A stretch of DNA of 47,826 bases, from assembly GCA_001781555.1 (NCBI GenBank), contig MFLP01000034.1, positions 1,788 through 49,613 on the forward strand, written 5' to 3'. The translations under genes were made by a program, and so were the position numbers. Positions 32 to 44,907 of this stretch are shown in pieces. Origin of the DNA: Candidatus Kaiserbacteria bacterium RIFCSPHIGHO2_12_FULL_53_13 (GTDB lineage Bacteria; Patescibacteriota; Minisyncoccia; Phycocordibacterales; UBA2100). Numbering within the stretch: position 1 is the first letter of the stretch; each line of letters opens with the position of its first letter. The notes beneath the pieces were generated by a model. That model was not told where the DNA came from. It saw only the letters and a list, made by a program, of their open reading frames with translations, and did not search any database.

Positions 32-1264
32 CTATTTATCCGCGCGCGTCCGCATCTCTTCCGCGATCCGCTCGATGACATCCGCGACGGCAAGCGCCCC
101 GATCTTCCCGGCGCGCCCTTCGAGCGTCACCGTCTTCGCGTTCGCTTCTTCATCGCCCACGACCGCGAGGTAGGGGATTCTTTGCATCTTGCCGTTCCTT
201 ATGCGCTTGCCGAGCGTGTCTGCGGAATCGTCAAGAAGAACCCGGATATCCGCGCCTTTCAGCACATCGAACACCTCGCGCGCATAATCCGCGTGCTTTT
301 CCGAGACGGGGAGTATCTTCACCTGCGCCGGCGAGAGCCACACGGGGAGCGCCCCGTTCAAGTGTTCGAGTATGACCGATAGGAAGCGCTCGATAGAGCC
401 CATGATGGCCGCGTGGATCATCACGATACGCTCCTTCTCGCCCTTCTCGTTCACGCACGTGAGGTCGAAACGCTCCGGCATGTTCATGTCGAGCTGTATC
501 GTCGCCACTTGCCACTGCCGCCCCAAAGAATCGTTCGCCATGAAATCGAGCTTGGGGCCGTAGAATGCCGCTTCACCCGGACTTTCGACGACCTTCGCTT
601 TCTTCTCGCGCGCGATCTCGCGCAAAATGTCTTCCGCAGACGTCCAGCGCTTCTTGTCGCCGAGGTATTTCTCGGGTTCTTTCGGATCGTGGAATGAAAG
701 GCGTACCGAGAGGTCGAAGCCGAACGTGCCGTAGAACTCCTGGACGATGTCCCAGACTTTGAGGAACTCCTCCTTCACCTGCGCCTCGCGGCAGAACGTG
801 TGCGCATCGTCCTGCGTGATGGAGCGGACACGCGAGAGCCCGTTCAATTCTCCGCTCTGCTCGTCGCGGTAGACCATCGTCGTGTTGGTGTAGCGCTGAG
901 GCATCTCGCGGTAGCTCCAGGGCTTGCGCGCGTAGATCTGCGTGTGGTGCGGGCAGTTCATGGGCTTCATGGCGAACTCGTGGCCCTCGCGCGTCGTGAT
1001 GCGGAAGAGATCGTCTTTGAATTTGTCCCAGTGGCCGCTCGTCTCGTAGAGCTCTTTCTTCGTGATGTGCGGTATCTCGACTTTCTCGAAGCCGCGCGCC
1101 TTGCGCAATTCCCACACGAAATCGTCGAGCAGATTCCGGACGAGCGTGCCGCGCGGAGTCCAAAGGGGGAGACCGCTCCCGACCAGATCGGAGAAGACGA
1201 ACAGGTCGAGCTCGCGGCCGAGCTGCTTATGATCCGGGTTTTCCGACGAATGTGTTTCACTCAC
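32..1264 (-). CDS. thrS: Threonyl-tRNA synthetase, catalytic core plus anticodon-binding domain only (no TGS or editing N-terminus)
   Basis: The ORF track gives 32..1321 (429 aa). It carries a ThrRS-type class II core (DHKQLGRELDLF, LPLWTPRGT, FAMKPMNCPHH, RVRSITQDDAHTF) and a C-terminal anticodon-binding domain. The in-frame GTG at 1264 abuts the 3' arm of clamp element E1 and is preferred as the start. ATG 1321 is the longest alternative. Confidence 0.9.
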   Translation of the reverse strand: MSETHSSENPDHKQLGRELDLFVFSDLVGSGLPLWTPRGTLVRNLLDDFVWELRKARGFEKVEIPHITKKELYETSGHWDKFKDDLFRITTREGHEFAMKPMNCPHHTQIYARKPWSYREMPQRYTNTTMVYRDEQSGELNGLSRVRSITQDDAHTFCREAQVKEEFLKVWDIVQEFYGTFGFDLSVRLSFHDPKEPEKYLGDKKRWTSAEDILREIAREKKAKVVESPGEAAFYGPKLDFMANDSLGRQWQVATIQLDMNMPERFDLTCVNEKGEKERIVMIHAAIMGSIERFLSVILEHLNGALPVWLSPAQVKILPVSEKHADYAREVFDVLKGADIRVLLDDSADTLGKRIRNGKMQRIPYLAVVGDEEANAKTVTLEGRAGKIGALAVADVIERIAEEMRTRADK

Positions 1265-1381
1265 CCCGTTAGAAATAGGACGCGGACTATCAGGGTCGGT
1301 ATTTTTTGTTTTTTTGTCCATAGTCTAAAAGTTGCTGGAATATATTAATCCTGTAAGTCCGCTATTTCTAACGGGGCTCAT
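1264..1381 (-). promoter_or_regulatory. Start-codon clamp element E1 (upstream of thrS)
   Basis: On the minus strand a -10 TAATAT (1390-1395) is followed by 8 nt and ATG 1381. The 5' arm CCCCGTTAGAAATAG (1376-1362) pairs 15/15 with CTATTTCTAACGGGG (1278-1264), whose last G is the thrS GTG. A second stem is CGGACT/AGTCCG. The mini-ORF reads MSPVRNSGLTGLIYSSNF* (1381-1325). Confidence 0.8.
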
Positions 1382-4782: not shown

Positions 4783-4799
4783 ACGGTAGAGCCATTATA

Positions 4800-4934
4800 C
4801 CCGGTTAGTAGAATTTCGGCTTGCCGAAGGCGAGAGCTGAAATTTCCCCATGTGGCTTCAAAGTTGATACTTCGTGGTCGACCTAGCCATATTCTGCGAC
4901 GGCAAAAAACATAAGCCGAAATTACACTACCGGG
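4800..4934. repeat. Imperfect 22-bp inverted repeat in the dnaE/rnhB divergent promoter region
   Basis: CCCGGTTAGTAGAATTTCGGCTT (4800-4822) faces AAGCCGAAATTACACTACCGGG (4913-4934). Each arm sits just upstream of a -10 box: TATAAT for dnaE on the minus strand and TATAAT 4945-4950 for rnhB. Confidence 0.7.
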
Positions 4935-4957
4935 ATAGCAGGGTTATAATAACGCTC

Positions 4958-6849: not shown

Positions 6850-7542
6850 ATGCATATGGACTTCAAGACTTTTGAAACCAGGATAGGATATTCATTTAAG
6901 AACGGAAACCTGCTTGAGCAGGCATTCACCCACCGCTCGTATTTGAACGAGAATCGCGCACCGGGACGCGAACACAACGAGCGCCTGGAATTTTTGGGCG
7001 ACGCGGTGCTCGAGCTCGTCGTGACGGAATTCCTCTACGGCAAATACCCCGATAAGCCCGAAGGCGACCTGACCTCATATCGAGCGGCCTTGGTGAACAC
7101 CGTGAGCATTTCGGACGCGGCGACGAAGCTTGGGATGAATGAATATCTCTTGCTCTCTCGCGGCGAGGCGCGCGACACGGGGCGCGCCAGGGCGATAATA
7201 CTTGCGAATGCGTTCGAGGCGTTAATAGGCGCTCTGTATCTGGACGATGGATATGAGGAGGCAAAGAAATTCATTGCCGCGCAGCTCTTTCATAAGACCG
7301 ACGAGGTGGTCGCGAAGGGACTGTGGCAGGACTCGAAAAGCCGGTTCCAGGAAATTGCACAGGAGAAGGAGGGTATTACTCCGTCGTATGACGTTGTGAG
7401 CCAGACGGGTCCCGACCATGACAAAAACTTCTTGGTCGGCGTTTACATCGGCTCGACGCGCATTGCAACCGGAGAAGGGAGGTCAAAACAGGAGGCAGAG
7501 CAAAAGGCAGCGGAGAAAGCTCTTGCTACAAAGAGGTGGTAA
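6850..7542 (+). CDS. rnc: Ribonuclease III
   Basis: The RNase III signature NERLEFLGDAVLE is followed by a C-terminal dsRBD (GPDHDKNF...GEGRSKQEAEQKAA). ATG 6856 is an alternative start. Confidence 0.93.
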   Translation: MHMDFKTFETRIGYSFKNGNLLEQAFTHRSYLNENRAPGREHNERLEFLGDAVLELVVTEFLYGKYPDKPEGDLTSYRAALVNTVSISDAATKLGMNEYLLLSRGEARDTGRARAIILANAFEALIGALYLDDGYEEAKKFIAAQLFHKTDEVVAKGLWQDSKSRFQEIAQEKEGITPSYDVVSQTGPDHDKNFLVGVYIGSTRIATGEGRSKQEAEQKAAEKALATKRW

Positions 7543-8877: not shown

Positions 8878-8909
8878 GGAACATGGGGCATTTGCCGTAA
8901 GCATCTGAT

Positions 8910-8930
8910 AGCACGTGGTGCTGCTTTTTT
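8910..8930 (+). terminator. Weak intrinsic terminator after the 7552-8877 gene
   Basis: The hairpin AGCAC-GTG-GTGCT is followed by GC and TTTTTT. The stem is only 5 bp. Confidence 0.35.
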
Positions 8931-8946
8931 GGTAGAATGAACACCA

Positions 8947-9071
8947 ATGTATCCCGTTAGAAGTTTCGGAAGTTATGATAGCTGTGCAGTCGCGGCAAGT
9001 TTGCACACGGTCGATTGTTTAGTATACGTAGGTATCAAGTCGGAAGCGCAAGCTTCCTACTTCTAACGGGA
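8947..9071 (+). promoter_or_regulatory. Start-codon clamp element E2 (upstream of smc)
   Basis: TGGTAGAAT (8930-8938) is followed by 8 nt and ATG 8947. The 5' arm TCCCGTTAGAAGT (8952-8964) pairs 13/13 with ACTTCTAACGGGA (9059-9071), whose last A is the smc ATG. The mini-ORF 8947-9066 (39 aa) ends at the TAA inside the 3' arm. An inner hairpin GGAAGC-GCAA-GCTTCC is present. Confidence 0.85.
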
Positions 9072-11278
9072 TGTACCTCAAATCCATTGAGCTATCGGGG
9101 TTCAAATCGTTCGCGAAAAAGACCGAACTAGTATTCGGGTCGCGCATCGCGGGCATCGTGGGGCCCAACGGAAGCGGAAAATCCAACGTCGCGGAAGCGT
9201 TCCGGTTCGTCTTGGGCGAGCAGTCGATGAAATCCCTGCGCAGCCGGAGAGGGGAGGACCTAATCTGGGGCGGCTCGCCGGCGCTCTCGCGCTCGAATCG
9301 CGCCGGGGTGAAAGTTGTTTTTGACAACTCGAAGCGCCTTCTCGACCTCGATTTCAAGGAAGTCGCCGTTGAGCGCATCGTCTATCGCGATGGCCAGAAC
9401 GAATATCTTTTGAATGGCACGCAAGTGCGTCTCAAAGACGTGATACGACTTCTTGCCGGCGCGAACATAGGCGGCTCCGGCTACCAGATAATCTCCCAAG
9501 GCGAGGCGGACAGGATATTGAACGCAAGTCCGCGCGAGCGCAGGGAGATGGTGGAAGACGCGCTTGGGCTCAAACTCTATCAGCACAAAAAAGCGGAGAG
9601 CGAGCGGAAGCTCGATGAAACTGCTGTGAATATCGAGAAGACGCGTTCGCTCCGGCGGGAGATAAGCCCTCATCTCAACTTCCTGCGTGTACAAGTGGAG
9701 AAGATTGAAAAGGCGCGCGAGATGAAAGAAGAACTTTCCGCAAAACTCAGTGAGTATCTCGCGCGCGAGCATGCATGGATAACGCAGGAAGACGCGCGCC
9801 TCCTCGCGGAGGCGCGCACACAAGAATCCGAGCTGAAAAAGCTCGGCGCCCGCGTCAACGAGGCGCGCGGAAAGCGCACCGGCGACAGCGACGACACGCT
9901 CAAAGAACTGCAGGGAAGAATTGTCGAGCGCGAACACAAGCTATCCATGGCGCGGCGCGAGAGCGAAAAGCTCAGTCGCGAACTCGGCCGGGCGGAGGGG
10001 GCCGCGGAAGCAACCAATGTGACGGTAGAACAGATCGTCGCCGTCCCGCATGTGCGTCAATTTGCGCGCGAAGTGAGCGAAGCGCTCGCCGGAGCCGAGA
10101 GGACAGACGACATTGCCGCAGTGCGCGGGCTTATCGGACAGATACGCGAGCGCATCAAGGCGTTTGTCGACGGTCTGTCCGGTTCCGCGCCGCAGACAAA
10201 TGAAGAGATGAAGCAGCAAGTGAAGGCAATAGCGAACTCTCTTGAGCGCGTGCAGAAAGAAGAATCGGAGCTAGCCCAAGAGCTGGAGGCGCTTCGCGCG
10301 AAGATCACGCAAGTACGCGACGCCGGGTTTACTGCGGAGCGCGATTTGGTCGGGCTTGAATCCGCCGTGCGCGAAGCGCAGACGAAATTAAGCGCGGTTT
10401 CAGGCGCGCGCGGCAACATTGCAGTAGCGCGACAGCGTTTCGAGGAGGAAGTGCGGGAGGGAATCGTTCTCATCGGCGCCGCTGTCCATGGATGGGAAAA
10501 GAGCGTGATACCGGAAGGAGCGCTCTCCGAAGATCGCGGCGCGCAGGAAAAACGCCGGCGCGAGATAGAACGTTTGAAAATAAAGATAGAAGAATCAGGC
10601 ATCGGCAACGGCGACGCGGTCGTTCGCGAGTTCAACCAGACGAAAGAGCGCGACGTATTCCTCGGTCGCGAGCTTGAAGATTTGGAGCGTTCAGCAGCGT
10701 CGCTCAAAGATATCATTGCGGAACTGGAAAAGACGATAGACGAGCACTTTACTTCAGGGCTCAAGCAAATAAACGAAGCGCTCTCGAGTTTCTTCACGAA
10801 GCTTTTCGGAGGAGGTGAGGCGAAATTGGAGGTAGAGAAACCAAAAAGGCCTCGCGGCGCGAAAGACGATGATCTGGATGAGGACGAAGACGAAGATGAT
10901 ATACCCGAAGAGGAAGAATTATACGCCGGACTTTCTATATCGGTTCAGCTTCCGCGCAAAAAAGTGCGCGGACTCGAGGTGCTCTCGGGCGGCGAGCGTG
11001 CACTCACATCCATCGCGCTTATTTTTTCCATGTCGCAAGTGAATCCTCCGCCTTTTCTTGTTCTGGATGAGACGGATGCCGCGCTCGATGAGGCGAACAG
11101 CAAGCGCTACGCCGACATGATCCGCGAGCTCGGCGGCAAGAGTCAGCTCATCGTCATCACTCATAACCGCGCGACGATGGCGGCGGCAGGGGAGCTTTAC
11201 GGCGTCACGATGGGGCAGGACGGAATTTCCAAACTTCTTTCCGTCAAACTTGAGGAGGCGGAAAAAGTCGCCAAATAA
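9071..11278 (+). CDS. smc: SMC-family chromosome segregation ATPase, unusually short (735 aa)
   Basis: The N-terminal head reads MYLKSIELSGFKSF...GPNGSGKSN, followed by a long coiled-coil region. The C-terminal head carries the signature LSGGERALTSIALIF and Walker B FLVLDETDAALD. An acidic insert DDDLDEDEDEDDIPEEEE precedes the C-terminal head. Confidence 0.88.
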   Translation: MYLKSIELSGFKSFAKKTELVFGSRIAGIVGPNGSGKSNVAEAFRFVLGEQSMKSLRSRRGEDLIWGGSPALSRSNRAGVKVVFDNSKRLLDLDFKEVAVERIVYRDGQNEYLLNGTQVRLKDVIRLLAGANIGGSGYQIISQGEADRILNASPRERREMVEDALGLKLYQHKKAESERKLDETAVNIEKTRSLRREISPHLNFLRVQVEKIEKAREMKEELSAKLSEYLAREHAWITQEDARLLAEARTQESELKKLGARVNEARGKRTGDSDDTLKELQGRIVEREHKLSMARRESEKLSRELGRAEGAAEATNVTVEQIVAVPHVRQFAREVSEALAGAERTDDIAAVRGLIGQIRERIKAFVDGLSGSAPQTNEEMKQQVKAIANSLERVQKEESELAQELEALRAKITQVRDAGFTAERDLVGLESAVREAQTKLSAVSGARGNIAVARQRFEEEVREGIVLIGAAVHGWEKSVIPEGALSEDRGAQEKRRREIERLKIKIEESGIGNGDAVVREFNQTKERDVFLGRELEDLERSAASLKDIIAELEKTIDEHFTSGLKQINEALSSFFTKLFGGGEAKLEVEKPKRPRGAKDDDLDEDEDEDDIPEEEELYAGLSISVQLPRKKVRGLEVLSGGERALTSIALIFSMSQVNPPPFLVLDETDAALDEANSKRYADMIRELGGKSQLIVITHNRATMAAAGELYGVTMGQDGISKLLSVKLEEAEKVAK

Positions 11279-14010: not shown

Positions 14011-14107
14011 CGGGCATTACACTTTTGCCGTCGCTGTCTGTGCGTGCTCGCACAGCGCTGCCTCTTGCGCCGTCGCGCTGCGAGACACGGCAAAAGCGCA
14101 ATGCCCG
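14011..14107 (+). repeat. Intergenic palindromic repeat, family A, copy 2
   Basis: The outer stem is CGGGCATTACACTTTTGCCG ... CGGCAAAAGCGCAATGCCCG. The core has hairpins CTGTGCG-TGCT-CGCACAG and GCGC-CGTC-GCGC. It is about 93% identical to the reverse complement of 23385-23481. It starts 12 nt after the helicase stop codon. Confidence 0.85.
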
Positions 14108-14197: not shown

Positions 14198-14749
14198 ATG
14201 TATATAAATCTCCTTTCTATTGTCACGGAGTGGCAATATGGCGGCTGTGTGCCATTCGCAAAACACAGCATTGATCTCTCGGGGGTCGCGATGGCAAAAT
14301 TGAAGGTCGTTTCAGTTCGTTGGTGGCGCGGCGAGAACGCGCCGAAGGCGGAGGATGTTGCGTCTCTGATGCTCGCCAAGACCGACATGGAATGGCGTCC
14401 CGCTTCTCGCGAGATGTTTCCCCATCAAGAGGCCCTGGACCTCAGCGTCGCAGACTTTGCAAAAGTGCTACACGCAGTACAGCTCATCCAGTCGGAGCTA
14501 TGGACGCAGTATCACGTCCATGCGTACGTGAACATCGACGACGAACCGATTGATGTATACGCCGCAGCTCTGGAACTCAGAGCTGCGGAGCTAGAAGAAG
14601 CGGCCAGAAGTGCGAGCGTCGCGCTCAAGGCAACCCGTAAGTGGGTGCCTGATTACCGCTTTGCACGGATCCGGTATCGTCTTGCCGGAGTGTTGAATCG
14701 GGACAGGTTCGCACATTGCTTGAGCAAGGTGTTGTACCCAGAGCGCTAA
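14198..14749 (+). CDS. Hypothetical protein
   Basis: This is the 3' part of the ORF-track entry 13592-14749. The 5' part overlaps the helicase gene and repeat A2 and was discarded. ATG 14198 follows TGTGGCAAT at 6-7 nt. I recognise no motif. Confidence 0.5.
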   Translation: MYINLLSIVTEWQYGGCVPFAKHSIDLSGVAMAKLKVVSVRWWRGENAPKAEDVASLMLAKTDMEWRPASREMFPHQEALDLSVADFAKVLHAVQLIQSELWTQYHVHAYVNIDDEPIDVYAAALELRAAELEEAARSASVALKATRKWVPDYRFARIRYRLAGVLNRDRFAHCLSKVLYPER

Positions 14750-14839: not shown

Positions 14840-15919
14840 ATGTTACGTGCACCGTTCTACGATCCGGCAAAAAGCTACGAAGAGAATTACGACACGGGAC
14901 CGTTTAGCGCTTTCGCCGACGGTGAAGTATATGCACAGCGAGGCGAGCCAACCGTCGATTTTTACGGGCACAAAGTATACGCGCCGCTCGGCATCCCCGC
15001 AGGGCCGCTTTTGAATAGCGCGTTCTGTAAAGGCGCGTTCGAGAATGGTTTCGACATTTGCGTGTACAAGACCGTCCGCAGCAGCGTCTTCCCGTGCCAT
15101 CCGTTCCCGAATGTTCTCGCGATCCATCCCGTCGGCAATCTTACGTTCGAGAAATTGGAAAAGCCCATCATTGCCGACACGTCGTATGTCGAGCCGCTCT
15201 CGATAACCAATTCGTTCGGCGTGCCGTCGAAGGACCCGGCTGTTTGGCAGGAAGATGCGCGCAAAGCGGTCGCGGCTGCCGGGAAAGGGCAGGTGCTTGT
15301 CCTCAGCTTCATGGGCACGGTGCGCGAGAATCAGACGGCCGATGAATTCGTGGCTGATTTCGCGAAGGCCGCCGAATTGTCCCTGCAAACGGGTTCCCCG
15401 ATATTGGAGGCGAACCTCTCATGCCCCAACATCGGCAACGAGGGATTGGTCTGCTACAACCTCGACGTGACGGAGAAGGTCGCGAAAGGGATCCGCGGCG
15501 CGATCGGGAACACGCCGCTCGTCCTCAAGGTCGGCTACTACAAGAACGATGCCGATATCGAACGGCTCGCGGAGATCGCGAACGAGTATGCGGACGGCAT
15601 TTCGGGCATCAATACGCTACAGGGCGAGATCAGGGACGCACAGGGCAATCAGGCCCTGCCCGGTTCTCCTGCGCGCCTGCGCTCCGGCGTGTGCGGCACG
15701 GGCATTCGATGGGCGGGCCTCGATTTCGTACGCCGCCTCAATGCAATTCGGAAGAAACGCGGCTTCACGTTCGCGATCGAAGGGGTGGGCGGCGTGCTCA
15801 CGCCCGCAGATTACCGCGCGTATCGCGACGCCGGCGCCGATTCGGTGATGTCCGCCACTGGCGCAATGTGGAATCCTTACCTAGCCAAAGAGATCAAGGA
15901 AGCATACCCGGACGCATGA
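14840..15919 (+). CDS. Dihydroorotate dehydrogenase-family FMN oxidoreductase (class 1-like TIM barrel)
   Basis: It carries the NLSCPN active-site-type motif, GISGINT and GVGGV. TGGTATACT (14825-14833) lies 6 nt before the ATG. The substrate is not assignable from sequence alone. Confidence 0.75.
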   Translation: MLRAPFYDPAKSYEENYDTGPFSAFADGEVYAQRGEPTVDFYGHKVYAPLGIPAGPLLNSAFCKGAFENGFDICVYKTVRSSVFPCHPFPNVLAIHPVGNLTFEKLEKPIIADTSYVEPLSITNSFGVPSKDPAVWQEDARKAVAAAGKGQVLVLSFMGTVRENQTADEFVADFAKAAELSLQTGSPILEANLSCPNIGNEGLVCYNLDVTEKVAKGIRGAIGNTPLVLKVGYYKNDADIERLAEIANEYADGISGINTLQGEIRDAQGNQALPGSPARLRSGVCGTGIRWAGLDFVRRLNAIRKKRGFTFAIEGVGGVLTPADYRAYRDAGADSVMSATGAMWNPYLAKEIKEAYPDA

Positions 15920-18762: not shown

Positions 18763-18820
18763 TCCTTTGCGCGCCGCCCGCCAGTTTCCCCAAAATGCTG
18801 AATTGCGGAATGTCGTTATG

Positions 18821-18842
18821 CTAGTGTTTTGCAAAAGACTAG
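18821..18842. promoter_or_regulatory. Near-palindromic 22-mer, candidate ArsR operator (copy 1)
   Basis: CTAGTGTTTTGCAAAAGACTAG is self-complementary at 20/22 positions. It lies 8 nt upstream of the TAGAAT -10 (18850-18855) of the ArsR gene. Confidence 0.55.
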
Positions 18843-18861
18843 CATAAGGTAGAATTGCAAC

Positions 18862-19143
18862 ATGACGAATGTTAGTAGTGAATACAGAAGGCTAGAGCGG
18901 ATTGTAAAAGGATTTGCGAATCATCGGCGGCTTCAGATCTTGGATCTTTTGAAGCGGGAGCCGGAATTGTCGGTAGAAGACATTTCCGAACGGCTGGGGA
19001 TTGGATACGAGAATGCATCTGACCATGTACGCAAACTCGCGATAGCCGGGCTTGTCCTCAAGCGCAACGAGGGAAGCTCGGTGCGGCACAAGCTTACGCC
19101 CCGCGCGGAGTCTATACTAGTGTTTTGCAAAAGACTGCAATAA
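18862..19143 (+). CDS. ArsR/SmtB-family winged-helix transcriptional regulator
   Basis: 93 aa. FANHRRLQILDLLKREPELSVEDISERLGIGYENASDHVRKLAIAGLV is typical of ArsR. TAGAAT lies 6 nt before the ATG. Confidence 0.85.
   Translation: MTNVSSEYRRLERIVKGFANHRRLQILDLLKREPELSVEDISERLGIGYENASDHVRKLAIAGLVLKRNEGSSVRHKLTPRAESILVFCKRLQ
19117..19136. repeat. Second copy of the ArsR-associated palindromic 20-mer
   Basis: CTAGTGTTTTGCAAAAGACT lies inside the last codons of the ArsR gene and is identical to 18821-18840. Confidence 0.6.
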
Positions 19144-19656: not shown

Positions 19657-19717
19657 GCAGAAAAGGAGCATCTGAGCGGATTTCCCCAAAGTTCGTATTT
19701 GTGGGATGATCCTATTG

Positions 19718-20551
19718 ATGGCTATTCCAACATACGATAATTTGTTTAACCCAGTCATTGAAGCCTTAAAGAAACTTGGAGGTTCAGGATCAGTTTCTGA
19801 GATTGAAGAGAAAGTCGCCGTATTACTCAAATTGACCGATGAAGAAGTAAACGAAATACACCGAGGTAACAGGTCGAAGTTGAGCTATCGACTTGCTTGG
19901 TCGAGAAATTATCTGAAACGTTACGGAATCTTGGAAAATTCCTCGCGTGGAGTTTGGGCTCTAACGCCATTGGGAACGAAGACAGGAAAAGTCGATAAAG
20001 ACGAGGTCAACAAGGCCGTCAAACTGCTTGACCAAGCGCTCGTCAAGGGGAAGAAAGATGGTAAAAAAGTTATAGACGATGAAGAGCCAGGTTTATGGCA
20101 AGAAGAAATGTTGGAGCAACTTCTGAAACTTTCTCCAGCCGCGTTCGAGCGACTATGTCAACGTATACTACGCGAGTCAGGCTTTGTTCAAGTAGAAGTC
20201 ACTGGCCGATCCGGTGATGGAGGTATTGATGGTCGGGGCATTATAAAGATAGCAGGTCTTCTTAGCTTCTACATTATTTTTCAGTGCAAACGGTATACGG
20301 GCAGTGTATCTGCTCAGCAGATCAGAGATTTCAGAGGTGCGATGGTCGGGCGAGCTGATAAAGGACTTGTTATAACTACTGGGACTTTTACGAGAGACGC
20401 AAGGCAAGAAGCTACAAGGGATGGTGCGCCGCACATCGATCTTATCGAGGGGGAGGAGTTAGTTGAGAAGATGAAGGAATTGCAACTTGGTTTGAAAATT
20501 AAGATGGAGGAATCGGTTGAGGTTGATAAGGATTGGTTTAAAGCTTTCTAA
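19718..20551 (+). CDS. mrr: Mrr-family type IV (modification-dependent) restriction endonuclease
   Basis: The Mrr_N-type start is MAIPTYDNLFNPVIEALKKLGG. The catalytic region reads GDGGIDGRG...IIFQCKRY...GLVITTGTFT. ATG 19718 is preferred over the ORF-track 19706. Confidence 0.85.
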   Translation: MAIPTYDNLFNPVIEALKKLGGSGSVSEIEEKVAVLLKLTDEEVNEIHRGNRSKLSYRLAWSRNYLKRYGILENSSRGVWALTPLGTKTGKVDKDEVNKAVKLLDQALVKGKKDGKKVIDDEEPGLWQEEMLEQLLKLSPAAFERLCQRILRESGFVQVEVTGRSGDGGIDGRGIIKIAGLLSFYIIFQCKRYTGSVSAQQIRDFRGAMVGRADKGLVITTGTFTRDARQEATRDGAPHIDLIEGEELVEKMKELQLGLKIKMEESVEVDKDWFKAF

Positions 20552-20567
20552 ACCAACCCAACTAATT

Positions 20568-21518
20568 ATGAAGAAGAGAGAAAAGAAGAAGAAACAGAAT
20601 TCATGGATAGCAAAAGCCGCAGACTCTATTAAAAGGGCTGGACTTGCGTACAAAACTGTTACCACCAAGAGTTCACAGCATCTTTTGATAAATGCCGACT
20701 GTGAGGACGGGATGCGTGCGCTGCCGGAAGGCAGTGTGGATCTTATTATCACAGATCCACCCTACAACCAGAATCTCGATTATGGTCCGAAATTCAACGA
20801 CAAAAAATCCCGCGGTGAGTTTTATTCCTGGTTTAGAAGACGACTTTCATATATTCCCAGTCTATTAAGTTCACGCGGAAGTTTTTATCTTATTAGCTAT
20901 CCAGAAATTAATGCCAGAATCTTACCGTTTCTTGAGGACGAGCTGGGCCTAAACTATCGTGCATGGATCACATGGCATTATCCAACAAATATCGGTCATT
21001 CGAAAAAGAACTTCACACGCAGCCAAAGATCCATCTTATTTTTTACTAAGGAAAAAGATAATTATATTTTTAACCGGGATATTTTACTCCAGCCATATAA
21101 AAATCCAACCGCACCTGTTATAAGAGAACGAATCAAACAAGGGGCTAAAGGTCGGGTTGCATATGACACACTTCGTTTATCTGATTTATATGAACTCAAT
21201 AAATTGTCATACGATGTACAGATATTAGATCTATTAAAAAACAATTCTCCTGAGAGACTAAGAAATCTGGACGGGCACTTTACCCCTTTCAACGATGATA
21301 AGAAGTTGAAGAGAAATGATCATCCCTGTCAGTTGCCCTTGAGCTTGCTCACACTTTTTATACAAGTTAGTAGCAACACAAATTCTCTGATCCTGGATCC
21401 ATTCGCCGGCACTTTTACCACCTCCGCTGCGGCTGAAAAATTAAACCGCTCTTCTGTGGGAATAGAGCTTAACAAGAAATTCATAGATTTCGGTTCAAAG
21501 AGATTATCTCTCATATGA
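20568..21518 (+). CDS. Beta-class N6-adenine/N4-cytosine DNA methyltransferase
   Basis: Motif IV DLIITDPPYN precedes motif I ILDPFAGTFTTS, which is the beta-class permutation. Start 20568 is preferred over the ORF-track 20517, which overlaps mrr. Confidence 0.85.
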   Translation: MKKREKKKKQNSWIAKAADSIKRAGLAYKTVTTKSSQHLLINADCEDGMRALPEGSVDLIITDPPYNQNLDYGPKFNDKKSRGEFYSWFRRRLSYIPSLLSSRGSFYLISYPEINARILPFLEDELGLNYRAWITWHYPTNIGHSKKNFTRSQRSILFFTKEKDNYIFNRDILLQPYKNPTAPVIRERIKQGAKGRVAYDTLRLSDLYELNKLSYDVQILDLLKNNSPERLRNLDGHFTPFNDDKKLKRNDHPCQLPLSLLTLFIQVSSNTNSLILDPFAGTFTTSAAAEKLNRSSVGIELNKKFIDFGSKRLSLI

Positions 21519-23260
21519 AATATGGACTTGCACAAGCAATAAACATCTTCAATCTAGGGGGAATATTTGCTTGTGATATTGAAGAAACAAAACTTCTAAT
21601 CTCGAAAAGATCCGAGACAGTAAGTGCAGGGAAAATAACGAAGCAAGGAGAGGAGATTGAACTTGACGGCTTTGCGATGAAGGGGGATGTGTTATGGCTC
21701 ATAGAATATACGGACTCGAGGAGCTTAGACACAAAAGATTTTGACAACTTTATTCAAAAGATTACTCTCTTGGGAGACGATGAAAACAAGATGCTTATAG
21801 AAGCCATTAATAAAATCTGGTCAAAATATAAAGTAAAAGAAACGAAACCGAACATCACAGTTAAGACGCAATTAATCGGTCTCTACATTGCGCCGATGAA
21901 AGGTGAGGCTGATGAGGCCACACTCCTCCAAAGAATACCGAGAGACAAGAGAGACAAGACAATATTTTTTTGGGGTCGCGATACTTTTGAGTATTTTTAC
22001 TCCATATGTGAGAGCACCAGACGAAATGCACAGTATGAAATTTACGGTTATTTCAATCTGGAACCTAAGGCCGTCTTCGAGAAGAAGGAAGTCGAAGACC
22101 AAGAGGGCTATGTGTCGAAACCCTATGTAGATATTGAGAAAGGTATTTTCGGATGTCGAATGATAATTTTTAAGATTAGCCCCACATCACTTCTCCGGAG
22201 ATGCTATGTGTTGCGCAACGAGGGCTGGAAAAGCGACAGTTTCCAGCGAATGATAATTCAGGAGAAGTTGAAAAAACTGCGCTCGTACATTGTCGCAAGG
22301 GATGATTCTTCATTTGCGAATAGCATCATTCTCAGTTTGGATCCGAATATTTCGTCAAACGTTTTGAAAGAGGATACAAAGTCAATACTGCTTCCGAATC
22401 GTTTTGCAAGCTTATGTATCATTGATGGTCAACACAGACTTCTCGCGTTTACGCAAGATTTTTATGGAGAGAGCGATCCTTCAGAAAAGGAAAATGATGG
22501 GAAAATTAAGAGACTTGCCGAGAATGAAGATTTAATTGCCACGCTGTTGGTTTTTAATGGAAAACCGCAAGAAATATTGCGTAAACAGACTCAACTTTTT
22601 AGAGATATTAATGCGACCCAAACAAAAGTAAAAAGCGACTTCCTCTATAATCTTGAAGAGATTATAGAGCCTAAGAACCCATCGTCAGTTGGAAACAAGA
22701 TTATCAAATCTCTCAACAGGAGAGAGAACGGTGTATTTCATGAGAAGTTTTCTGTTAAATGGTATCAAGGTGGGAGAATAAAAAGATCTAGTGTCATCCA
22801 ATGGGGATTGGTCGACTTGGTCAAAAAAGACGGACTTCTTTATAAGTGTGCTCCGCGCTCTACGATAGAGAAATATTCAAAGGGTGACGTCGAAGATTAT
22901 GTAGTCTTTTGCGCGAATTCGCTGGAAGACTTCTTTTACGCCATCAGACAAACATTTAAGAAGAAGTATCCTAAGAAAAAGAGCGTGTGGGATTTTTCTT
23001 CAAAAAGTAAACTAATGCTGCTATCGACATCAGCAATCGTGGGATTCCTTAGGCTTTACAGGCATTTCTTGCATTCGAAGATTTTAAAATCCAATTACGA
23101 GGAATACCTTTCCGGTATTGAAGTCAAATTCAACAAAGTTTCTTACAAGTATAGTTCCAGCCAATGGGCAAAGTTAGAGGAGGCAATGTTTGATGACATT
23201 CGCGAAAAATACGGATCTTTTGGCGATGAGTCACTAATAAAAAGATCAAAGAAAATCTAA
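21515..23260 (+). CDS. DGQHR-domain (DndB-like, ParB/Srx-fold) protein with an unassigned ~200-aa N-terminal domain
   Basis: 581 aa. The DGQHR-domain pattern is present: SFQRMI..., IIDGQHRLLAF and LFRDINATQTKV. The ATG overlaps the methyltransferase stop (ATGA at 21515-21518). Confidence 0.75.
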   Translation: MKYGLAQAINIFNLGGIFACDIEETKLLISKRSETVSAGKITKQGEEIELDGFAMKGDVLWLIEYTDSRSLDTKDFDNFIQKITLLGDDENKMLIEAINKIWSKYKVKETKPNITVKTQLIGLYIAPMKGEADEATLLQRIPRDKRDKTIFFWGRDTFEYFYSICESTRRNAQYEIYGYFNLEPKAVFEKKEVEDQEGYVSKPYVDIEKGIFGCRMIIFKISPTSLLRRCYVLRNEGWKSDSFQRMIIQEKLKKLRSYIVARDDSSFANSIILSLDPNISSNVLKEDTKSILLPNRFASLCIIDGQHRLLAFTQDFYGESDPSEKENDGKIKRLAENEDLIATLLVFNGKPQEILRKQTQLFRDINATQTKVKSDFLYNLEEIIEPKNPSSVGNKIIKSLNRRENGVFHEKFSVKWYQGGRIKRSSVIQWGLVDLVKKDGLLYKCAPRSTIEKYSKGDVEDYVVFCANSLEDFFYAIRQTFKKKYPKKKSVWDFSSKSKLMLLSTSAIVGFLRLYRHFLHSKILKSNYEEYLSGIEVKFNKVSYKYSSSQWAKLEEAMFDDIREKYGSFGDESLIKRSKKI

Positions 23261-23384
23261 GTATTCCCTGCAGAGGCGTCTTGCATCAAATCGACGCCGG
23301 TGGACATTGGGCGATTCCAACCTCGTTTGTTTGTTCAGCTAGGTTCATTACTTGAGCCGTTCGCTTTCCCAGCTTAAGCGAGCT

Positions 23385-23481
23385 CGGGCATAGCGCTTCT
23401 GCCGTGTCTAGCAGCGCGACGGCGCGAGAGGCAGCGCTGTGCGAGCACGCACAGACAGCGACGGCAGAAGTGCTATGCCCG
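23385..23481 (-). repeat. Intergenic palindromic repeat, family A, copy 3 (inverted relative to copy 2)
   Basis: The outer stem CGGGCATAGCGCTTCTGCCG ... CGGCAGAAGTGCTATGCCCG pairs 19/20 plus one G-T. The core is nearly identical to the reverse complement of 14011-14107. Homology extends about 20 nt further (CTCRCTTRAGCTKGG). Confidence 0.85.
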
Positions 23482-23743
23482 ACGAGTATCCCTATTGCCA
23501 CCCCCCACCATTTTGTGCTATCCTGGTAATGTGAAATATAGAGGCGTAAACATACAGAATCGCCGTAGGACGCCTTATTTGAGGGTGTTTTAGAGCGTTT
23601 GCATTTATCCAGATCAAACTTTCCGAAACGTCCTCAAAAATGAGGCCGTTTTTGATTAATAGGGTAAAATTACACAGTAAAATAATATGAAAGCACAATA
23701 TCCGTACCACAAGGTAGCTTCATACGAAGGAGATAAAGACAGC

Positions 23744-24990: not shown

Positions 24991-26280
24991 ATGGCAAAGC
25001 TCTGGAAAAAGTCAGAGGAAAAACTGCATCCGTCCGTTGAGAGATATACGGCCGGGACCGATCACGTATTCGACATGCAATTAATGCCGTTTGATATTGA
25101 AGCCACCCGCGCGCATGCCAAAGGCCTTCAAAAAATAGGGATTCTTACGAGCGAAGAGCTCTCAAAAATACTCTCGGCCCTCGACAGCTTGGAAAAAGAA
25201 TTCGCGAACGGGGAGATAAAAATCACTCCGGCGGACGAAGATTGCCACACCGTGATGGAGAACTACCTCGTGAATAAACTCGGCGACACGGGGAAGAAAA
25301 TACACACCGGCAGAAGCAGGAATGACCAGGTGCTTGTGGCCCTGCGCATGTATATGCGCGCTTGCGCGCGTGAATTACATGGCGCAAGCGTGGAACTTGC
25401 CTCGAGTTTTCTTGATAAAGCGGAGAAGTACAAAGATATGCCGATGCCGGGCTACTCGCACACCCAGCAAGCGATGCTCACAAGCGTCGGCCATTACCTG
25501 CTGGCCTTCACGGAGAGTTTGCTGGACGATGCAGACCATCTTGCGCTAGTCCTCAAGCACATCAACAAGAGCCCTCTTGGTTCTGCCGCTGGATTCGGGG
25601 TCTCAATTCCATTGGATAGGGAATTCACCGCAAAAGAACTCAAGTTCGACGGAGTGCAGGTCAACTCTCTTTACTGCCAGAATTCACGCGGCAAATTCGA
25701 GAGTGTTTTTATGGAAGCGCTGGCGCAGATAATGCTTAGCTTGGGAAAATTTGCGAACGACATGCTCATGTTCACTTCGAATGAGTTCGATTTCTTCTCG
25801 GTTGATGGTTCGCTTACTACCGGTTCGAGCATCATGCCGCAAAAAAGGAACCTGGATGTCATGGAGATACTTCGCGGCAACGTAAGCGTGGTTCTTGCGG
25901 ACCAGCTCATGGTCAAGGACATTTCAAAGAATCTTCTCTCCGGCTATAACAGGGACCTCCAGCTCCTGAAGAAGCCCGTAATGGAGAGCGTTGAGATAGT
26001 CCGGAGCAGCCTGCAGGTGGCAGGGCTTATGCTTTCAGGAATGACGCCGAATGAAGAAAGCATGCGGGCGAAGATAACGCCCGGCATATTCGCGGCTGAC
26101 ATCGCGAATCAGCTTGTGCAGGAAAAAGGCATGCCGTTCCGCGACGCATACAAGCAGGCGCTTGACCTCGTCTCTTCGCGCCCGGTCGACTTGAAGGAGA
26201 ATCTCGATTCAAAGGTAAGCTTGGGAGCACCCGGGAATCTCGACCTCGCTAACTATCGCCGCCGCATAAAAAATGCATGA
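24991..26280 (+). CDS. argH: Argininosuccinate lyase
   Basis: The fumarate-lyase family signature region GSSIMPQKRNLDVMEILRG and TGRSRNDQV are present. Confidence 0.93.
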   Translation: MAKLWKKSEEKLHPSVERYTAGTDHVFDMQLMPFDIEATRAHAKGLQKIGILTSEELSKILSALDSLEKEFANGEIKITPADEDCHTVMENYLVNKLGDTGKKIHTGRSRNDQVLVALRMYMRACARELHGASVELASSFLDKAEKYKDMPMPGYSHTQQAMLTSVGHYLLAFTESLLDDADHLALVLKHINKSPLGSAAGFGVSIPLDREFTAKELKFDGVQVNSLYCQNSRGKFESVFMEALAQIMLSLGKFANDMLMFTSNEFDFFSVDGSLTTGSSIMPQKRNLDVMEILRGNVSVVLADQLMVKDISKNLLSGYNRDLQLLKKPVMESVEIVRSSLQVAGLMLSGMTPNEESMRAKITPGIFAADIANQLVQEKGMPFRDAYKQALDLVSSRPVDLKENLDSKVSLGAPGNLDLANYRRRIKNA

Positions 26281-26398
26281 GTCCCGTTAGAAGTCGCGGA
26301 CGACTAAATATACTAGCAACTATGAACTCAGCATTTATCAACGATAACAAAGTAAGATACGGAGCCCGTTCCGGTTCCGCGTCTTACTTCTAACGGGA
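26277..26398 (+). promoter_or_regulatory. Start-codon clamp element E3 (between argH and argF)
   Basis: The mini-ORF ATG 26277 overlaps the argH TGA as ATGA. The 5' arm TCCCGTTAGAAGT (26282-26294) pairs 13/13 with ACTTCTAACGGGA (26386-26398), whose last A is the argF ATG. A second stem is CGCGGA/TCCGCG. The mini-ORF 26277-26393 (38 aa) ends at the TAA in the 3' arm. Confidence 0.85.
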
Positions 26399-27381
26399 TG
26401 AAACACCTAATTTCTCTTAAAGAACAGAGCGCGGATGATATCCGGGAAATTCTGGATATTGCGTCAGACCTGAAGAAGAAATATCGCGCGGGTATCGCGA
26501 CGAATTTGCTGCCGGGGAAGACTCTCGTCATGCTCTTCCAGAAAAACTCGACGCGGACGCGCCTTTCATTTGAAGCCGGAATGACGGAACTCGGCGGCCA
26601 CGCGATATTCCTGGCGTCATCGCATGCACAGTTGCCGCTCGCGGATTTTAGCGACGAGATACAGGCAATAATGCGATTCGCAGATGTGTTGATGATACGG
26701 TCCATGCACGTCAAAGACGTGCTGACGGCCGCATCATACGACCGCATCCCAGTCATCGATGCTTGCAGCGAGAAATATCATCCATGCCAGGCGCTCGGAG
26801 ATATTATGACGATGTCGGAATATTCCGGTGGACTCAAGAATGTCAAAAAAATCGCGTGGCTGGGAATAGAAAATAACGTGTGCAATACCTTGAAACTGGC
26901 TTGTGCGAAATTGGGCATAGAGGTCGTTCTTGCGACTCCCGAAGTTCATCCGCCAAGCGTTGACAAGGAACTGAACGCGCAGGCTTCCGCGACGGGGAAA
27001 GTGCGGCGCGCTAAACATCCCAAGGATGCCATTGCCGACGCCGACTACGTGCACACCGATACATGGCTCGATGCGGAGTATTTCAATAATCGCACTCCGA
27101 AGCCGGAGTTCAGCGCGGAATTCGAACGGCGCAAGGCCGTGTTCATGCCGTACCAGCTGAATGCGAAACTCATTGATACGTATGCGCCGAAGGCGCGGAT
27201 AATGCACTGCATGCCGATGCACGTCGGGTACGAAATATCACGCGACGCCATCGACCACAAGAACTCCGTCATCTTTGATCAGGCGGAAAACCGCAAGCAC
27301 GTGCAGAAGGCGATCTTGCTCTGGCTTTTGGGCGTAAATATTAATCCTGCAAAACATCGGAAAATAGGGAAGAAGCGATGA
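26398..27381 (+). CDS. argF: Ornithine carbamoyltransferase
   Basis: Motifs STRTR, HPCQ and HCMP are present and the N-terminus MKHLISLKE is typical. Confidence 0.92.
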   Translation: MKHLISLKEQSADDIREILDIASDLKKKYRAGIATNLLPGKTLVMLFQKNSTRTRLSFEAGMTELGGHAIFLASSHAQLPLADFSDEIQAIMRFADVLMIRSMHVKDVLTAASYDRIPVIDACSEKYHPCQALGDIMTMSEYSGGLKNVKKIAWLGIENNVCNTLKLACAKLGIEVVLATPEVHPPSVDKELNAQASATGKVRRAKHPKDAIADADYVHTDTWLDAEYFNNRTPKPEFSAEFERRKAVFMPYQLNAKLIDTYAPKARIMHCMPMHVGYEISRDAIDHKNSVIFDQAENRKHVQKAILLWLLGVNINPAKHRKIGKKR

Positions 27382-28437: not shown

Positions 28438-28636
28438 AATATCTTATAGAACCAAATATCTCCCCGACGGGAGATTATTGATAAAAGTATCTTCCCATAC
28501 GGGCTGGATGTGGCACCTTCTCTTTCGAGGGTTGTCGGCGGGTCATCAGGCCAGTTCCTTCACCGCGCTCTTGATACGATATTCAGTTGTGCACACATGA
28601 TAGCAGTCATCGTGCCGCTGTGCAATACTGCCGCAC

Positions 28637-28738
28637 GTGTCCCGTTAGAAGCCCGGGGGCGCGATATGCTTAAAGAGAATCTAAGACAATCACAAAAAGG
28701 AAGTGGATATGTTTTGCCGCGTACCGCTTCTAACGGGA
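28637..28738 (+). promoter_or_regulatory. Start-codon clamp element E4 (upstream of maf), mini-ORF decayed
   Basis: TGcAATACT (28621-28629) is followed by 7 nt and GTG 28637. The 5' arm TCCCGTTAGAAGC (28640-28652) pairs 13/13 with GCTTCTAACGGGA (28726-28738), whose last A is the maf ATG. Only 1 nt separates the GTG from CCC, so the frame stops at TAG inside the arm. Confidence 0.8.
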
Positions 28739-29304
28739 TGAAAAAAATAATTCTCGCGTCCGCGTCTCCTCGCAGGAAGGAGATACTCAAAAAACTGCGG
28801 CTTCCGTTCACGACGGAAGAAAGCGGCTACGAGGAGGACTTGGGTCTCAAACTGAAGCCGCGCTCTCTTGCAAAGCACCTCGCGCTAATGAAGGCCGAAG
28901 CTGTCGCAAGGCGACGCAAGAACGCCATTGTCATCGGAGCCGATACCATCGTTGTCTTGAAAGGGAAAGTATTGGGGAAGCCGAAGAACGCATCGGATGC
29001 GCGCAAGATGCTGAGCCAACTCTCCGGCAATATACACACGGTCATTACCGGGTTCGCCATAATAGACGTAAAAACAGGAGAAAAAGTGTCGAAAGCGGTC
29101 GAGACGCGTGTGTATTTCAGGGAGCTTGATAAGCGCGAAATATCGGATTACATGAAAACGGGGGAGCCGCAGGGTAAAGCCGGGGCATATGCGATACAGG
29201 GATTTGGGGCTGTACTTATAAAGAAAATCGAAGGCGACTATTACAATGTCGTCGGATTGCCGCTTTCCGCACTTCGTGAGGAGTTAAACAGGATACTGGA
29301 ATAA
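28738..29304 (+). CDS. maf: Maf-like nucleoside triphosphate pyrophosphatase
   Basis: MKKIILASASPRRKEIL and GKAGAYAIQG are typical of Maf. The ORF-track start 28510 would add 76 atypical residues spanning the clamp element. Confidence 0.9.
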   Translation: MKKIILASASPRRKEILKKLRLPFTTEESGYEEDLGLKLKPRSLAKHLALMKAEAVARRRKNAIVIGADTIVVLKGKVLGKPKNASDARKMLSQLSGNIHTVITGFAIIDVKTGEKVSKAVETRVYFRELDKREISDYMKTGEPQGKAGAYAIQGFGAVLIKKIEGDYYNVVGLPLSALREELNRILE

Positions 29305-44780: not shown

Positions 44781-44907
44781 GGGGATTTTCCTACGTGGAG
44801 CCCGGCCGCACCTCCAGCGAGGTGCGGCCTTAGGTTCGCCGCACGATTTCGCCTTAGTCGAAAACCATGCTCGCGCGGCTGCACAGACTCCACGTAGGAA
44901 AATCCCC
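44781..44907. repeat. 127-nt element closed by a perfect 20-bp stem, between groEL and lemA
   Basis: GGGGATTTTCCTACGTGGAG (44781-44800) pairs with CTCCACGTAGGAAAATCCCC (44888-44907). The inner hairpin is GGCCGCACCTC-CAGC-GAGGTGCGGCC (44804-44829). An overlapping alternative is GTGCGGC-CTTAGGTTC-GCCGCAC. Confidence 0.8.

Follow-up and report, generated by a model that had tools for sequence, protein, structure and literature searches.

Six inverted-repeat elements at gene starts

In a Rifle groundwater contig assigned to Candidatus Kaiserbacteria, six genes begin exactly where a hairpin-forming repeat of 95-120 bp ends, which raises the question of whether these repeats are leaders with which the host controls its genes or DNA that has been inserted into their start codons. 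The stretch analysed, called the window below, is 47,826 nucleotides long. The preliminary description had taken the six copies (E1 to E6) for dedicated host leaders that clamp the start codon. It was partly supported, as the observation itself was confirmed and its regulatory-leader reading has been replaced by a mobile-element account. We consider it likely that E1-E6 are non-autonomous, MITE-like copies of an element that inserts at start codons, rebuilds the host start with its own last base and has a full form of ~280 bp with a single GIY-YIG gene. The six loci are as follows.

1264-1376, minus strand: E1, 113 bp, at the thrS start (terminal pair C..G)
8952-9071, plus strand: E2, 120 bp, in the smc start codon
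8952-8964 and 9059-9071, plus strand: 13-bp inverted-repeat arms of E2
26282-26398, plus strand: E3, 117 bp, in the ATGA overlap of argH and argF
28640-28738, plus strand: E4, 99 bp, at the maf start
32897-33013, plus strand: E5, 117 bp, at the start of an alpha/beta-hydrolase gene
35204-35298, plus strand: E6, 95 bp, at the ddl start (terminal pair C..G)

All six loci were recovered with paired arms that fold as stems and abut a gene start, and in each of them the pairing ends on the first base of the RTG start codon; at smc this is A9071, the last base of E2 and the first base of the ATG. The starts of smc, argF, maf and the hydrolase gene are supported by the N-termini of orthologues, and the listing of open reading frames (ORFs) shows no earlier in-frame start for smc and argF. 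The lack of a Shine-Dalgarno sequence was also confirmed, the region upstream of the regenerated RTG being the repeat itself, which holds no such motif.

Within the window CCCGTTAGA and its complement form six pairs, with 11 arms exact and one mismatch (CGTG) in the 3' repeat of E5. When up to one mismatch was allowed, CCCGTTAGA matched 17 times, compared to 7.4 ± 3 times in shuffled sequences, none of 100 of which reached 17. An independent repeat search returned arms of 14-15 nt with 100% complementarity for E1, E2 and E6. In RNA folds the arms form the outer stem of all six copies (z-scores -2.4 to -5.3), and the stem extends to ~22 bp in E1, E3 and E5. The elements have no intact coding capacity and hold only decayed upstream ORFs (uORFs). 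Searched against Rfam at gathering thresholds, the window contains only a SAM riboswitch and a tRNA and no family fits E1-E6, and an E-value scan of E3 gave chance-level matches only.

Target-site duplications and empty sites in relatives

A feature overlooked in the preliminary description is that an ATG plus two nucleotides (GTG in E4) stands before each 5' arm and duplicates the host start. The flanking sequences are the following, square brackets enclosing the terminal pair of each element.

E1, minus strand: flanks ATGAG[C..G]TGAG; old ATG 1381-1379; junction start GTG 1264-1262
1380-1377 and 1263-1260, minus strand: E1 duplication TGAG
E2, plus strand: flanks ATGTA[T..A]TGTA
8948-8951 (left) and 9072-9075 (right), plus strand: E2 duplication TGTA
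E3, plus strand: flanks ATGAG[T..A]TGAA; old ATG 26277; argH stop TGA 26278-26280; argF ATG 26398
26278-26281 and 26399-26402, plus strand: E3 duplication, TGAG and TGAA (3/4 bases match)
E4, plus strand: flanks GTG[T..A]TGAA; maf ATG 28738
28637-28639 and 28739-28742, plus strand: E4 duplication, left copy decayed to GTG, right copy TGAA
E5, plus strand: flanks ATGAA[T..A]TGAA; old ATG 32892; hydrolase ATG 33013
32893-32896 and 33014-33017, plus strand: E5 duplication TGAA
E6, plus strand: flanks ATGAA[C..G]TGAA; old ATG 35199; junction start GTG 35298
35200-35203 and 35299-35302, plus strand: E6 duplication TGAA

The 4-bp duplication is perfect in four of the six copies, E3 and E4 being the exceptions. 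Repeated flanks around inverted ends are the signature of a 4-bp target-site duplication.

The corresponding sites were compared with those of syntenic relatives. L126, the closest relative of the same gene order (ArgF 83% identical), has the argH/argF overlap without an element (gcattATGAGGCACCTC) and a plain maf start (gccgcgagtATGAGGAAA). The argH/argF ATGA overlap is empty in L128 as well, and L127 has no element at argF. In L129, a second syntenic relative whose Smc is 83% identical, no element is present at thrS, smc, maf or the hydrolase gene; the start of smc is tggtagaattaccaacaATGTATTTAAAATCC there, compared to tggtagaatgaacaccaATGTA, the element and TGTACCTCAAATCC in the window. The reverse is seen at cofD, which has a copy in L129 and none in the window; this copy is homologous to E6, which lies at ddl. 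Presence/absence polymorphism was thus found as empty orthologous sites for E1-E5 together with a reciprocal insertion at cofD, and the elements are therefore insertions that moved within the lineage and not ancestral leaders. The idea of a dedicated host clamp is not supported, given that close syntenic relatives lack the element at the same genes, that the copies are flanked by target-site duplications, and that their ends are common to the protein-coding mobile copies described below.

A full-length form encoding a GIY-YIG nuclease

The first full-length copies found with the same ends were one of 279 bp (L111) and one of 386 bp that contains a nested short copy (L013). Their ORF is a GIY-YIG domain (Pfam PF01541, E 5.7e-14), for which the nearest solved structure by sequence is the UPF0213 protein BH0048 (1ZG2, E 4.7e-8). 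A metagenome scan with this protein gave at least 554 relatives. Nearly all of the 80 loci fetched share one layout, with YCCCGTTAGAGA located 8-25 nt before the ORF and the ORF extending across the 3' repeat, where CTATCTCTAACGGGR codes for ...RLKRFLSLTG. The protein has 86-95 aa. Among the closest 120 of 4931 protein clusters (E <= 1e-5), 85 are 95 aa long, 73 begin with MNPVRD and 103 end with FLSLTG; in the DNA, the MNPVRD ORFs have ATG-AAY-CCC-GTT-AGA-GAY as their first codons, and their stop is the duplicated TGA. With pN of 0.22, pS of 0.78 and dN/dS of about 0.19, the ORF is under purifying selection.

Of these full-length copies 72 were analysable, with a median length of 279 bp. In 40 of them the right duplicate opens with the stop codon of the nuclease ORF (29 TGA, 9 TAA and 2 TAG), a TGA at this place overlapping the regenerated host RTG, and the junction RTG starts a host ORF in 26. 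A left, host-derived start codon is fused in frame to the nuclease ORF in 12 of the 26 copies having one.

Compared by nhmmer with the full-length model, the short copies share its 13-bp 5' repeat and its last ~23 nt (..F-L-S-L-T-G). Their interiors have no detectable homology to the nuclease gene beyond these ends, so that derivation by deletion rests on the shared termini and on orientation. An asymmetric CCT motif at the 3' end points toward the host gene in 28 copies and away from it in 4, and has the same orientation as the nuclease ORF. The short copies are likely to descend from the full-length form by deletion and decay, as judged from these sequence comparisons. Remnants of the nuclease N-terminus in their interiors were considered and rejected, as nhmmer matched the ends only, and the GIY-YIG protein used as a tblastn query had no match within the window. 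E1-E6 are very probably insertions of this family, defined by the GIY-YIG gene and the 13-bp repeats (YCCCGTTAGARRY).

Some related loci were noted. In L127 a full-length GIY-YIG element with variant repeats lies at 15297-15617, its TGA overlapping the ATG of a histidine-phosphatase gene; in L128 the same two flanking genes are 6 nt apart without an element (14249-14256). In the window, the divergent region between dnaE and the next gene contains an inverted repeat at 4787-4948 (CCCGGTTAGTAGAATTTCGGCTT / AAGCCGAAATTACACTACCGGG) whose arms resemble the variant repeat of the L127 element (TCCCGTTGTGAAGTTTCGGTT), and which may be a diverged seventh member of the family located away from a start codon. 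Two other small GIY-YIG genes of Patescibacteria (L009 4427-4651 and L037 2202-2462) adjoin a tRNA gene and have a partial tRNA copy on their other side, which suggests a different targeting mode in related elements.

Distribution, target site and covariation of the family

One genome per species was scanned for the pattern CCCGTTAGA-N72-102-TCTAACGGG, and at least 119 genome stretches in many phyla matched; the elements are widespread. The matches listed include Saccharibacteria, Paceibacterota and Kaiser-, Nomura-, Wolfe- and Moranbacteria. Others come from bins labelled Omnitrophota, Desulfobacterota, Planctomycetota and further groups, some of which are possibly mis-binned.

In 135 copies the 4-bp direct repeat is perfect in 87, always in one exact register, and shifted registers account for at most 4. 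A 6-bp duplication was rejected, as the outer bases match in only 68 and 58 of the 135 copies compared to 87 for the inner four; since the outer bases match about half the time, the Y..R pair belongs to the element. This terminal pair is T..A in 64 copies and C..G in 63. When reverse complements are pooled, the most frequent duplicated tetranucleotides are TGAA (34), TAAA (16), TGGA (10) and TGAG (10). A preference of the TAAA class for upstream stop codons was not supported, with 7 cases only. Tandem copies with one common duplication occur in L040 and L037.

In 65 of 133 copies an ORF of 80 aa or more begins at the junction RTG; these copies usually also have an ATG six bases before the 5' arm. 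In a wider count the junction coincides with a gene start in 72 of 164 short copies and in 16 of 50 full-length copies. The association with start codons proposed from the window accordingly holds for about half of the copies, and about half lie elsewhere.

Every position of the 13-bp terminal inverted repeats is paired in 94-100% of the copies, the invariance of the nine-base core being by construction because the genome sample was chosen with exact 9-mers and a 72-102-nt gap. The covariation first noticed in the six copies extends to 131 distinct copies, in which positions 0, 10, 11 and 12 are paired in 94-97%, compared to 57-72% after the partners were shuffled. Gene-oriented copies contain 4 G-U and 5 A-C mismatches; these numbers are small and show no excess of G-U on the sense strand. 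No RNA-specific pairing signal was found in this count, and the covariation is therefore no argument for RNA over DNA. Pairing may be maintained at the DNA level and need not be so in the mRNA, for example if a hairpin or cruciform serves as a substrate or if a protein binds symmetrically.

Two unusual forms were observed. Minimal hairpins of 29-46 bp, in which only a few loop bases separate the two terminal repeats (L081 3406-3435, L112 1263-1291, L082 and L101), may be extreme deletion products or excision remnants. In L026 (2167-5033; also L019 and L109) identical 92-bp copies in opposite orientation surround 2.7 kb that contains the gene of an Ig-like-domain protein; in the L026 pair the outer and inner flanks are also inverted repeats, which suggests a composite or inverted-duplication structure.

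Translation of the host genes

An element placed between a ribosome-binding site and its gene poses the problem of how that gene is translated. The uORF that starts at the old ATG spans the element without interruption in 20 of 53 short copies, E2 and E3 included, compared to 4-6 of 53 for the other frames and 5.3 ± 2.1 for shuffled sequences (maximum 13 in 500). Fifteen of the 20 open uORFs end within the 3' repeat on a TAA that is followed by the RTG after 4 nt, as in E2 and E3, and the other 5 stop at a TGA that overlaps the RTG. Of the 10 copies whose uORF would continue in the frame of the host protein, none is open. The distribution of open reading frames fits selection for termination-reinitiation coupling and against N-terminal fusions.

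8947-9066, plus strand: E2 uORF, 39 codons; begins at the original smc ATG (8947) and ends on a TAA in the 3' repeat (9064-9066), with 4 nt left to the regenerated smc ATG

Only E2 and E3 have a full-length uORF among the window copies, that of E3 comprising 38 codons with its TAA stop at 26391-26393. The uORFs of E1, E4, E5 and E6 stop early: E1 has 18 codons, E5 has 23, and E4, which has lost the upstream ATG, has only 3. E1 contains an in-frame ATG for thrS at 1321 (minus strand) and E6 one for ddl at 35274, and these may serve as starts instead. Public gene calls place the ddl start at 35274, inside E6, and the maf start at 28597, before E4, where the maf reading frame is open upstream of the element; gene callers thus misplace starts at element loci.

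The element inserts with a 4-bp duplication into T(G/A)AN tetranucleotides, the usual target in Patescibacteria being TGAA, TGAG or TGTA after the A of a start codon. The left duplicate retains the ribosome-binding context and the ATG of the host, which open the element ORF, or the remnant uORF in decayed copies. The right duplicate supplies the stop codon (TGA) of the element ORF and, together with the terminal purine of the element, rebuilds an RTG for the host gene. According to the model that we propose, a ribosome starting at the old ATG would unwind the repeat hairpin, stop 4 nt before the RTG or overlapping it, and restart there. Because of the proposed stop-restart coupling, no Shine-Dalgarno sequence would be needed and insertion would be tolerated in essential genes. 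On balance, termination-reinitiation coupling is the probable route by which the host genes are translated. In these ultra-small, gene-dense genomes mobile DNA lies within thrS, smc, argF and ddl, where it can be tolerated since the host regains a start codon and coupled translation is possible.

Expression of the host gene by a route that bypasses the uORF appears unlikely. It would involve an outward promoter in the AT-rich interior of the element, an RNase III cut that yields a leaderless mRNA beginning at the RTG, or precise removal of the element from DNA or RNA. The host encodes RNase III and RNase J, and the former gene was identified in the window.

6850-7542, plus strand: host RNase III gene, not part of the element (Pfam Ribonucleas_3_3, E 4e-39)

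RNase III cuts the repeats of Correia elements (PMC10969869) and by analogy could process the hairpins studied here, of which those of E1, E3 and E5 have the extended stems of ~22 bp; the identical 4-bp flanks would also make seamless excision possible. However, the excess of open uORFs, the positions of their stops and the lack of open in-frame fusions are left unaccounted for by such a route. An outward promoter was not supported, as the elements show no enrichment of promoter-like sites and E5 alone contains one. Outside the elements, one promoter-like site was noted before smc.

8930-8938, plus strand: TGGTAGAAT, an extended -10-like box, 8 nt upstream of the original smc ATG

This box is preceded by a terminator-like hairpin (8909-8923) and kept in L129, where the smc site is empty; it is a putative promoter.

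Mobility of the element and alternative origins

The nuclease is the sole conserved coding content between the repeats and might drive the mobility of the element. Movement could possibly occur by cutting and religation through 4-nt cohesive ends, or by a structure-specific cut at the repeat hairpins followed by host repair; strand transfer is not a known activity of GIY-YIG nucleases or of a bare GIY-YIG domain. We propose tentatively, as somewhat less than an even chance, that the ~280-bp element represents a new class of autonomous DNA transposon, and the smallest autonomous transposon known, with the GIY-YIG nuclease of 86-95 aa as its sole protein. Such a transposon would borrow its start, stop and translation signals through the 4-bp duplication at host starts, host genes would survive by stop-start coupling, and it would have spread over Patescibacteria and other phyla, spawning large MITE families. 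If the GIY-YIG protein does move the element, the mechanism of mobility is an undescribed one, and the system is minimal, with ~280 bp and one protein of 86 aa.

E1-E6 could instead be conventional MITEs that depend for their movement on an unseen DDE transposase acting in trans, such as one of the IS1380/piggyBac type, with the GIY-YIG gene as cargo or as an addiction module. Target-site duplications follow naturally from DDE enzymes and not from GIY-YIG nucleases alone, and a 4-bp duplication with CCC...GGG termini recalls piggyBac and IS1380; piggyBac has TTAA as its target and termini CCCTAGAAAG. We regard this origin as improbable, however, as the 1.1 Mb fetched from copy-carrying genomes contained no larger element bounded by these ends and had repeat-pair spacings clustered only at 50-150 and 250-300 bp, and as the only coding content between the repeats is the GIY-YIG ORF, which is conserved and built into both repeats. 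Searches with relaxed repeats for a parent of DDE size gave pairs formed by separate copies or by chance, and the ORFs enclosed were those of an Ig-like protein and of methyltransferases.

A host cis-regulatory RNA, whose stem would sequester the start codon of selected housekeeping genes until a signal opens it, could explain the stable stems, the four covarying stem positions and an RTG at the base of a stem without an upstream Shine-Dalgarno sequence, but it is very improbable and as the origin of the elements largely refuted by their absence at the same genes in relatives with 83% identical proteins (L126, L127, L128 and L129 examined), the target-site duplications that flank them, the copies at unrelated genes and non-genic sites in many phyla, the homologous copies at different genes in sister genomes, and the lack of an Rfam match and of a sense-strand G-U bias. 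A secondary, exapted effect of the hairpins on translation is possible.

Comparison with known systems

As mobile elements, the window copies conform to the structural definition of MITEs. The preliminary description had found no known MITE class with this layout, which was a fair remark in that we found no description of the family, although the element itself is MITE-like. Correia elements of Neisseria, RUP and ERIC resemble E1-E6 in being dispersed, ~100-150 bp long and bounded by terminal inverted repeats and short duplications, and in being co-transcribed with neighbouring genes to form mRNA hairpins. In contrast to them, the target here is a start codon that is rebuilt by the last base of the element, and the partner is a ~280-bp element with a GIY-YIG gene, not a DDE insertion sequence, present in many phyla. 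The family departs in three respects from the bacterial MITEs described, namely the rebuilt start-codon target, the ~280-bp GIY-YIG partner and the start and stop codons taken from the duplication, and it appears to represent a transposable element of an unusual kind for which there is no earlier description.

The mycobacterial MIRUs and the Rickettsia palindromic elements are likewise small repeats within translation units. MIRU ORFs overlap the stop and start codons of the flanking genes; unlike E1-E6, the MIRUs are tandem direct repeats without inverted repeats. Rickettsia palindromic elements are tolerated in frame (PMC10969869). They are translated within the host protein, whereas read-through is avoided here, as the 0 of 10 open in-frame copies indicate.

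The likeness to piggyBac and IS1380 concerns a 4-bp duplication that starts with T and mostly ends with A, 13-bp repeats that start with CCC and contain TAGA, and the possibility of seamless excision. The present element differs from both in being five to ten times smaller, in the lack of a DDE transposase in the 1.1 Mb searched, and in the single variable complementary base between the duplication and CCC. A relation to integron attC sites was rejected, as the order of the arms is reversed (GTTAGA...TCTAAC here compared to RYYYAAC...GTTRRRY).

Among GIY-YIG genes, the free-standing homing endonuclease genes (phage Seg proteins and I-TevI relatives) are likewise selfish and have settled within conserved genes or between them, where start and stop codons often overlap. 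Homing genes encode extra DNA-binding domains, have no terminal repeats or duplications, and use one cognate site by homologous repair. Here the protein is a bare domain (86-95 aa) encoded at many unrelated loci between repeats with a 4-bp duplication; it has the GIY-YIG catalytic domain of homing endonucleases (PF01541), but a single cognate site without repeats was not found. The stand-alone GIY-YIG proteins of the UPF0213/YhbQ type have the same size and domain content. They are annotated as single-copy proteins of unknown function, whereas the genes described here are multi-copy and repeat-bounded, and the insertion site supplies their start and stop codons. Proteins of 95 aa that begin with MNPVRD and bear the name "GIY-YIG nuclease family protein", of which there are hundreds, are ORF products of mobile elements.

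In the literature covered, which included few papers from subscription journals, no description of repeat-bounded GIY-YIG elements or of start-codon MITEs was found, and start codons do not feature in a 2024 review of prokaryotic MITEs. GIY-YIG ORFs have been noted, and left uncharacterised, in non-intron insertions of rRNA genes of CPR bacteria (PMC11270868). The repeats described here can be used to find insertion polymorphisms in genomes of candidate phyla.

Other features of the window

The window contains further small repeats. A second family of hairpin repeats, ~97 bp long with imperfect arms of ~34 nt (CGGGCATNNCNCTTNTGCCGT...), is represented at 14011-14107 and 23384-23482 by two copies in opposite orientations, both just downstream of genes and with short flanking repeats resembling CGAG/CTCG; it is probably another MITE. 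A perfect 20-nt inverted repeat at 44781-44907 (GGGGATTTTCCTACGTGGAG), with 87 nt between the arms and CGCT on both sides, lies between a 552-aa ORF and the next gene and is possibly a third small mobile element. The gene of a 93-aa regulator of the HTH_20 type is flanked at 18816-18847 and 19113-19143 by the same palindrome-containing sequence of ~31 nt (TATGCTAGTGTTTTGCAAAAGACTAGCATA), which looks like an operator pair.

An island at 19706-23260, located between housekeeping operons, encodes a Mrr-like restriction nuclease, an N6/N4 DNA methyltransferase and a DndB-family protein according to Pfam. The SAM riboswitch is found at 28484-28580 on the minus strand, upstream of metK and adjoining E4 at maf. 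The threonyl-tRNA synthetase encoded at 32-1264 (minus strand) has only ~410-430 aa, and that of L129 has 438 aa, compared to a usual length of ~640 aa; the enzyme of the window may be devoid of N-terminal domains.
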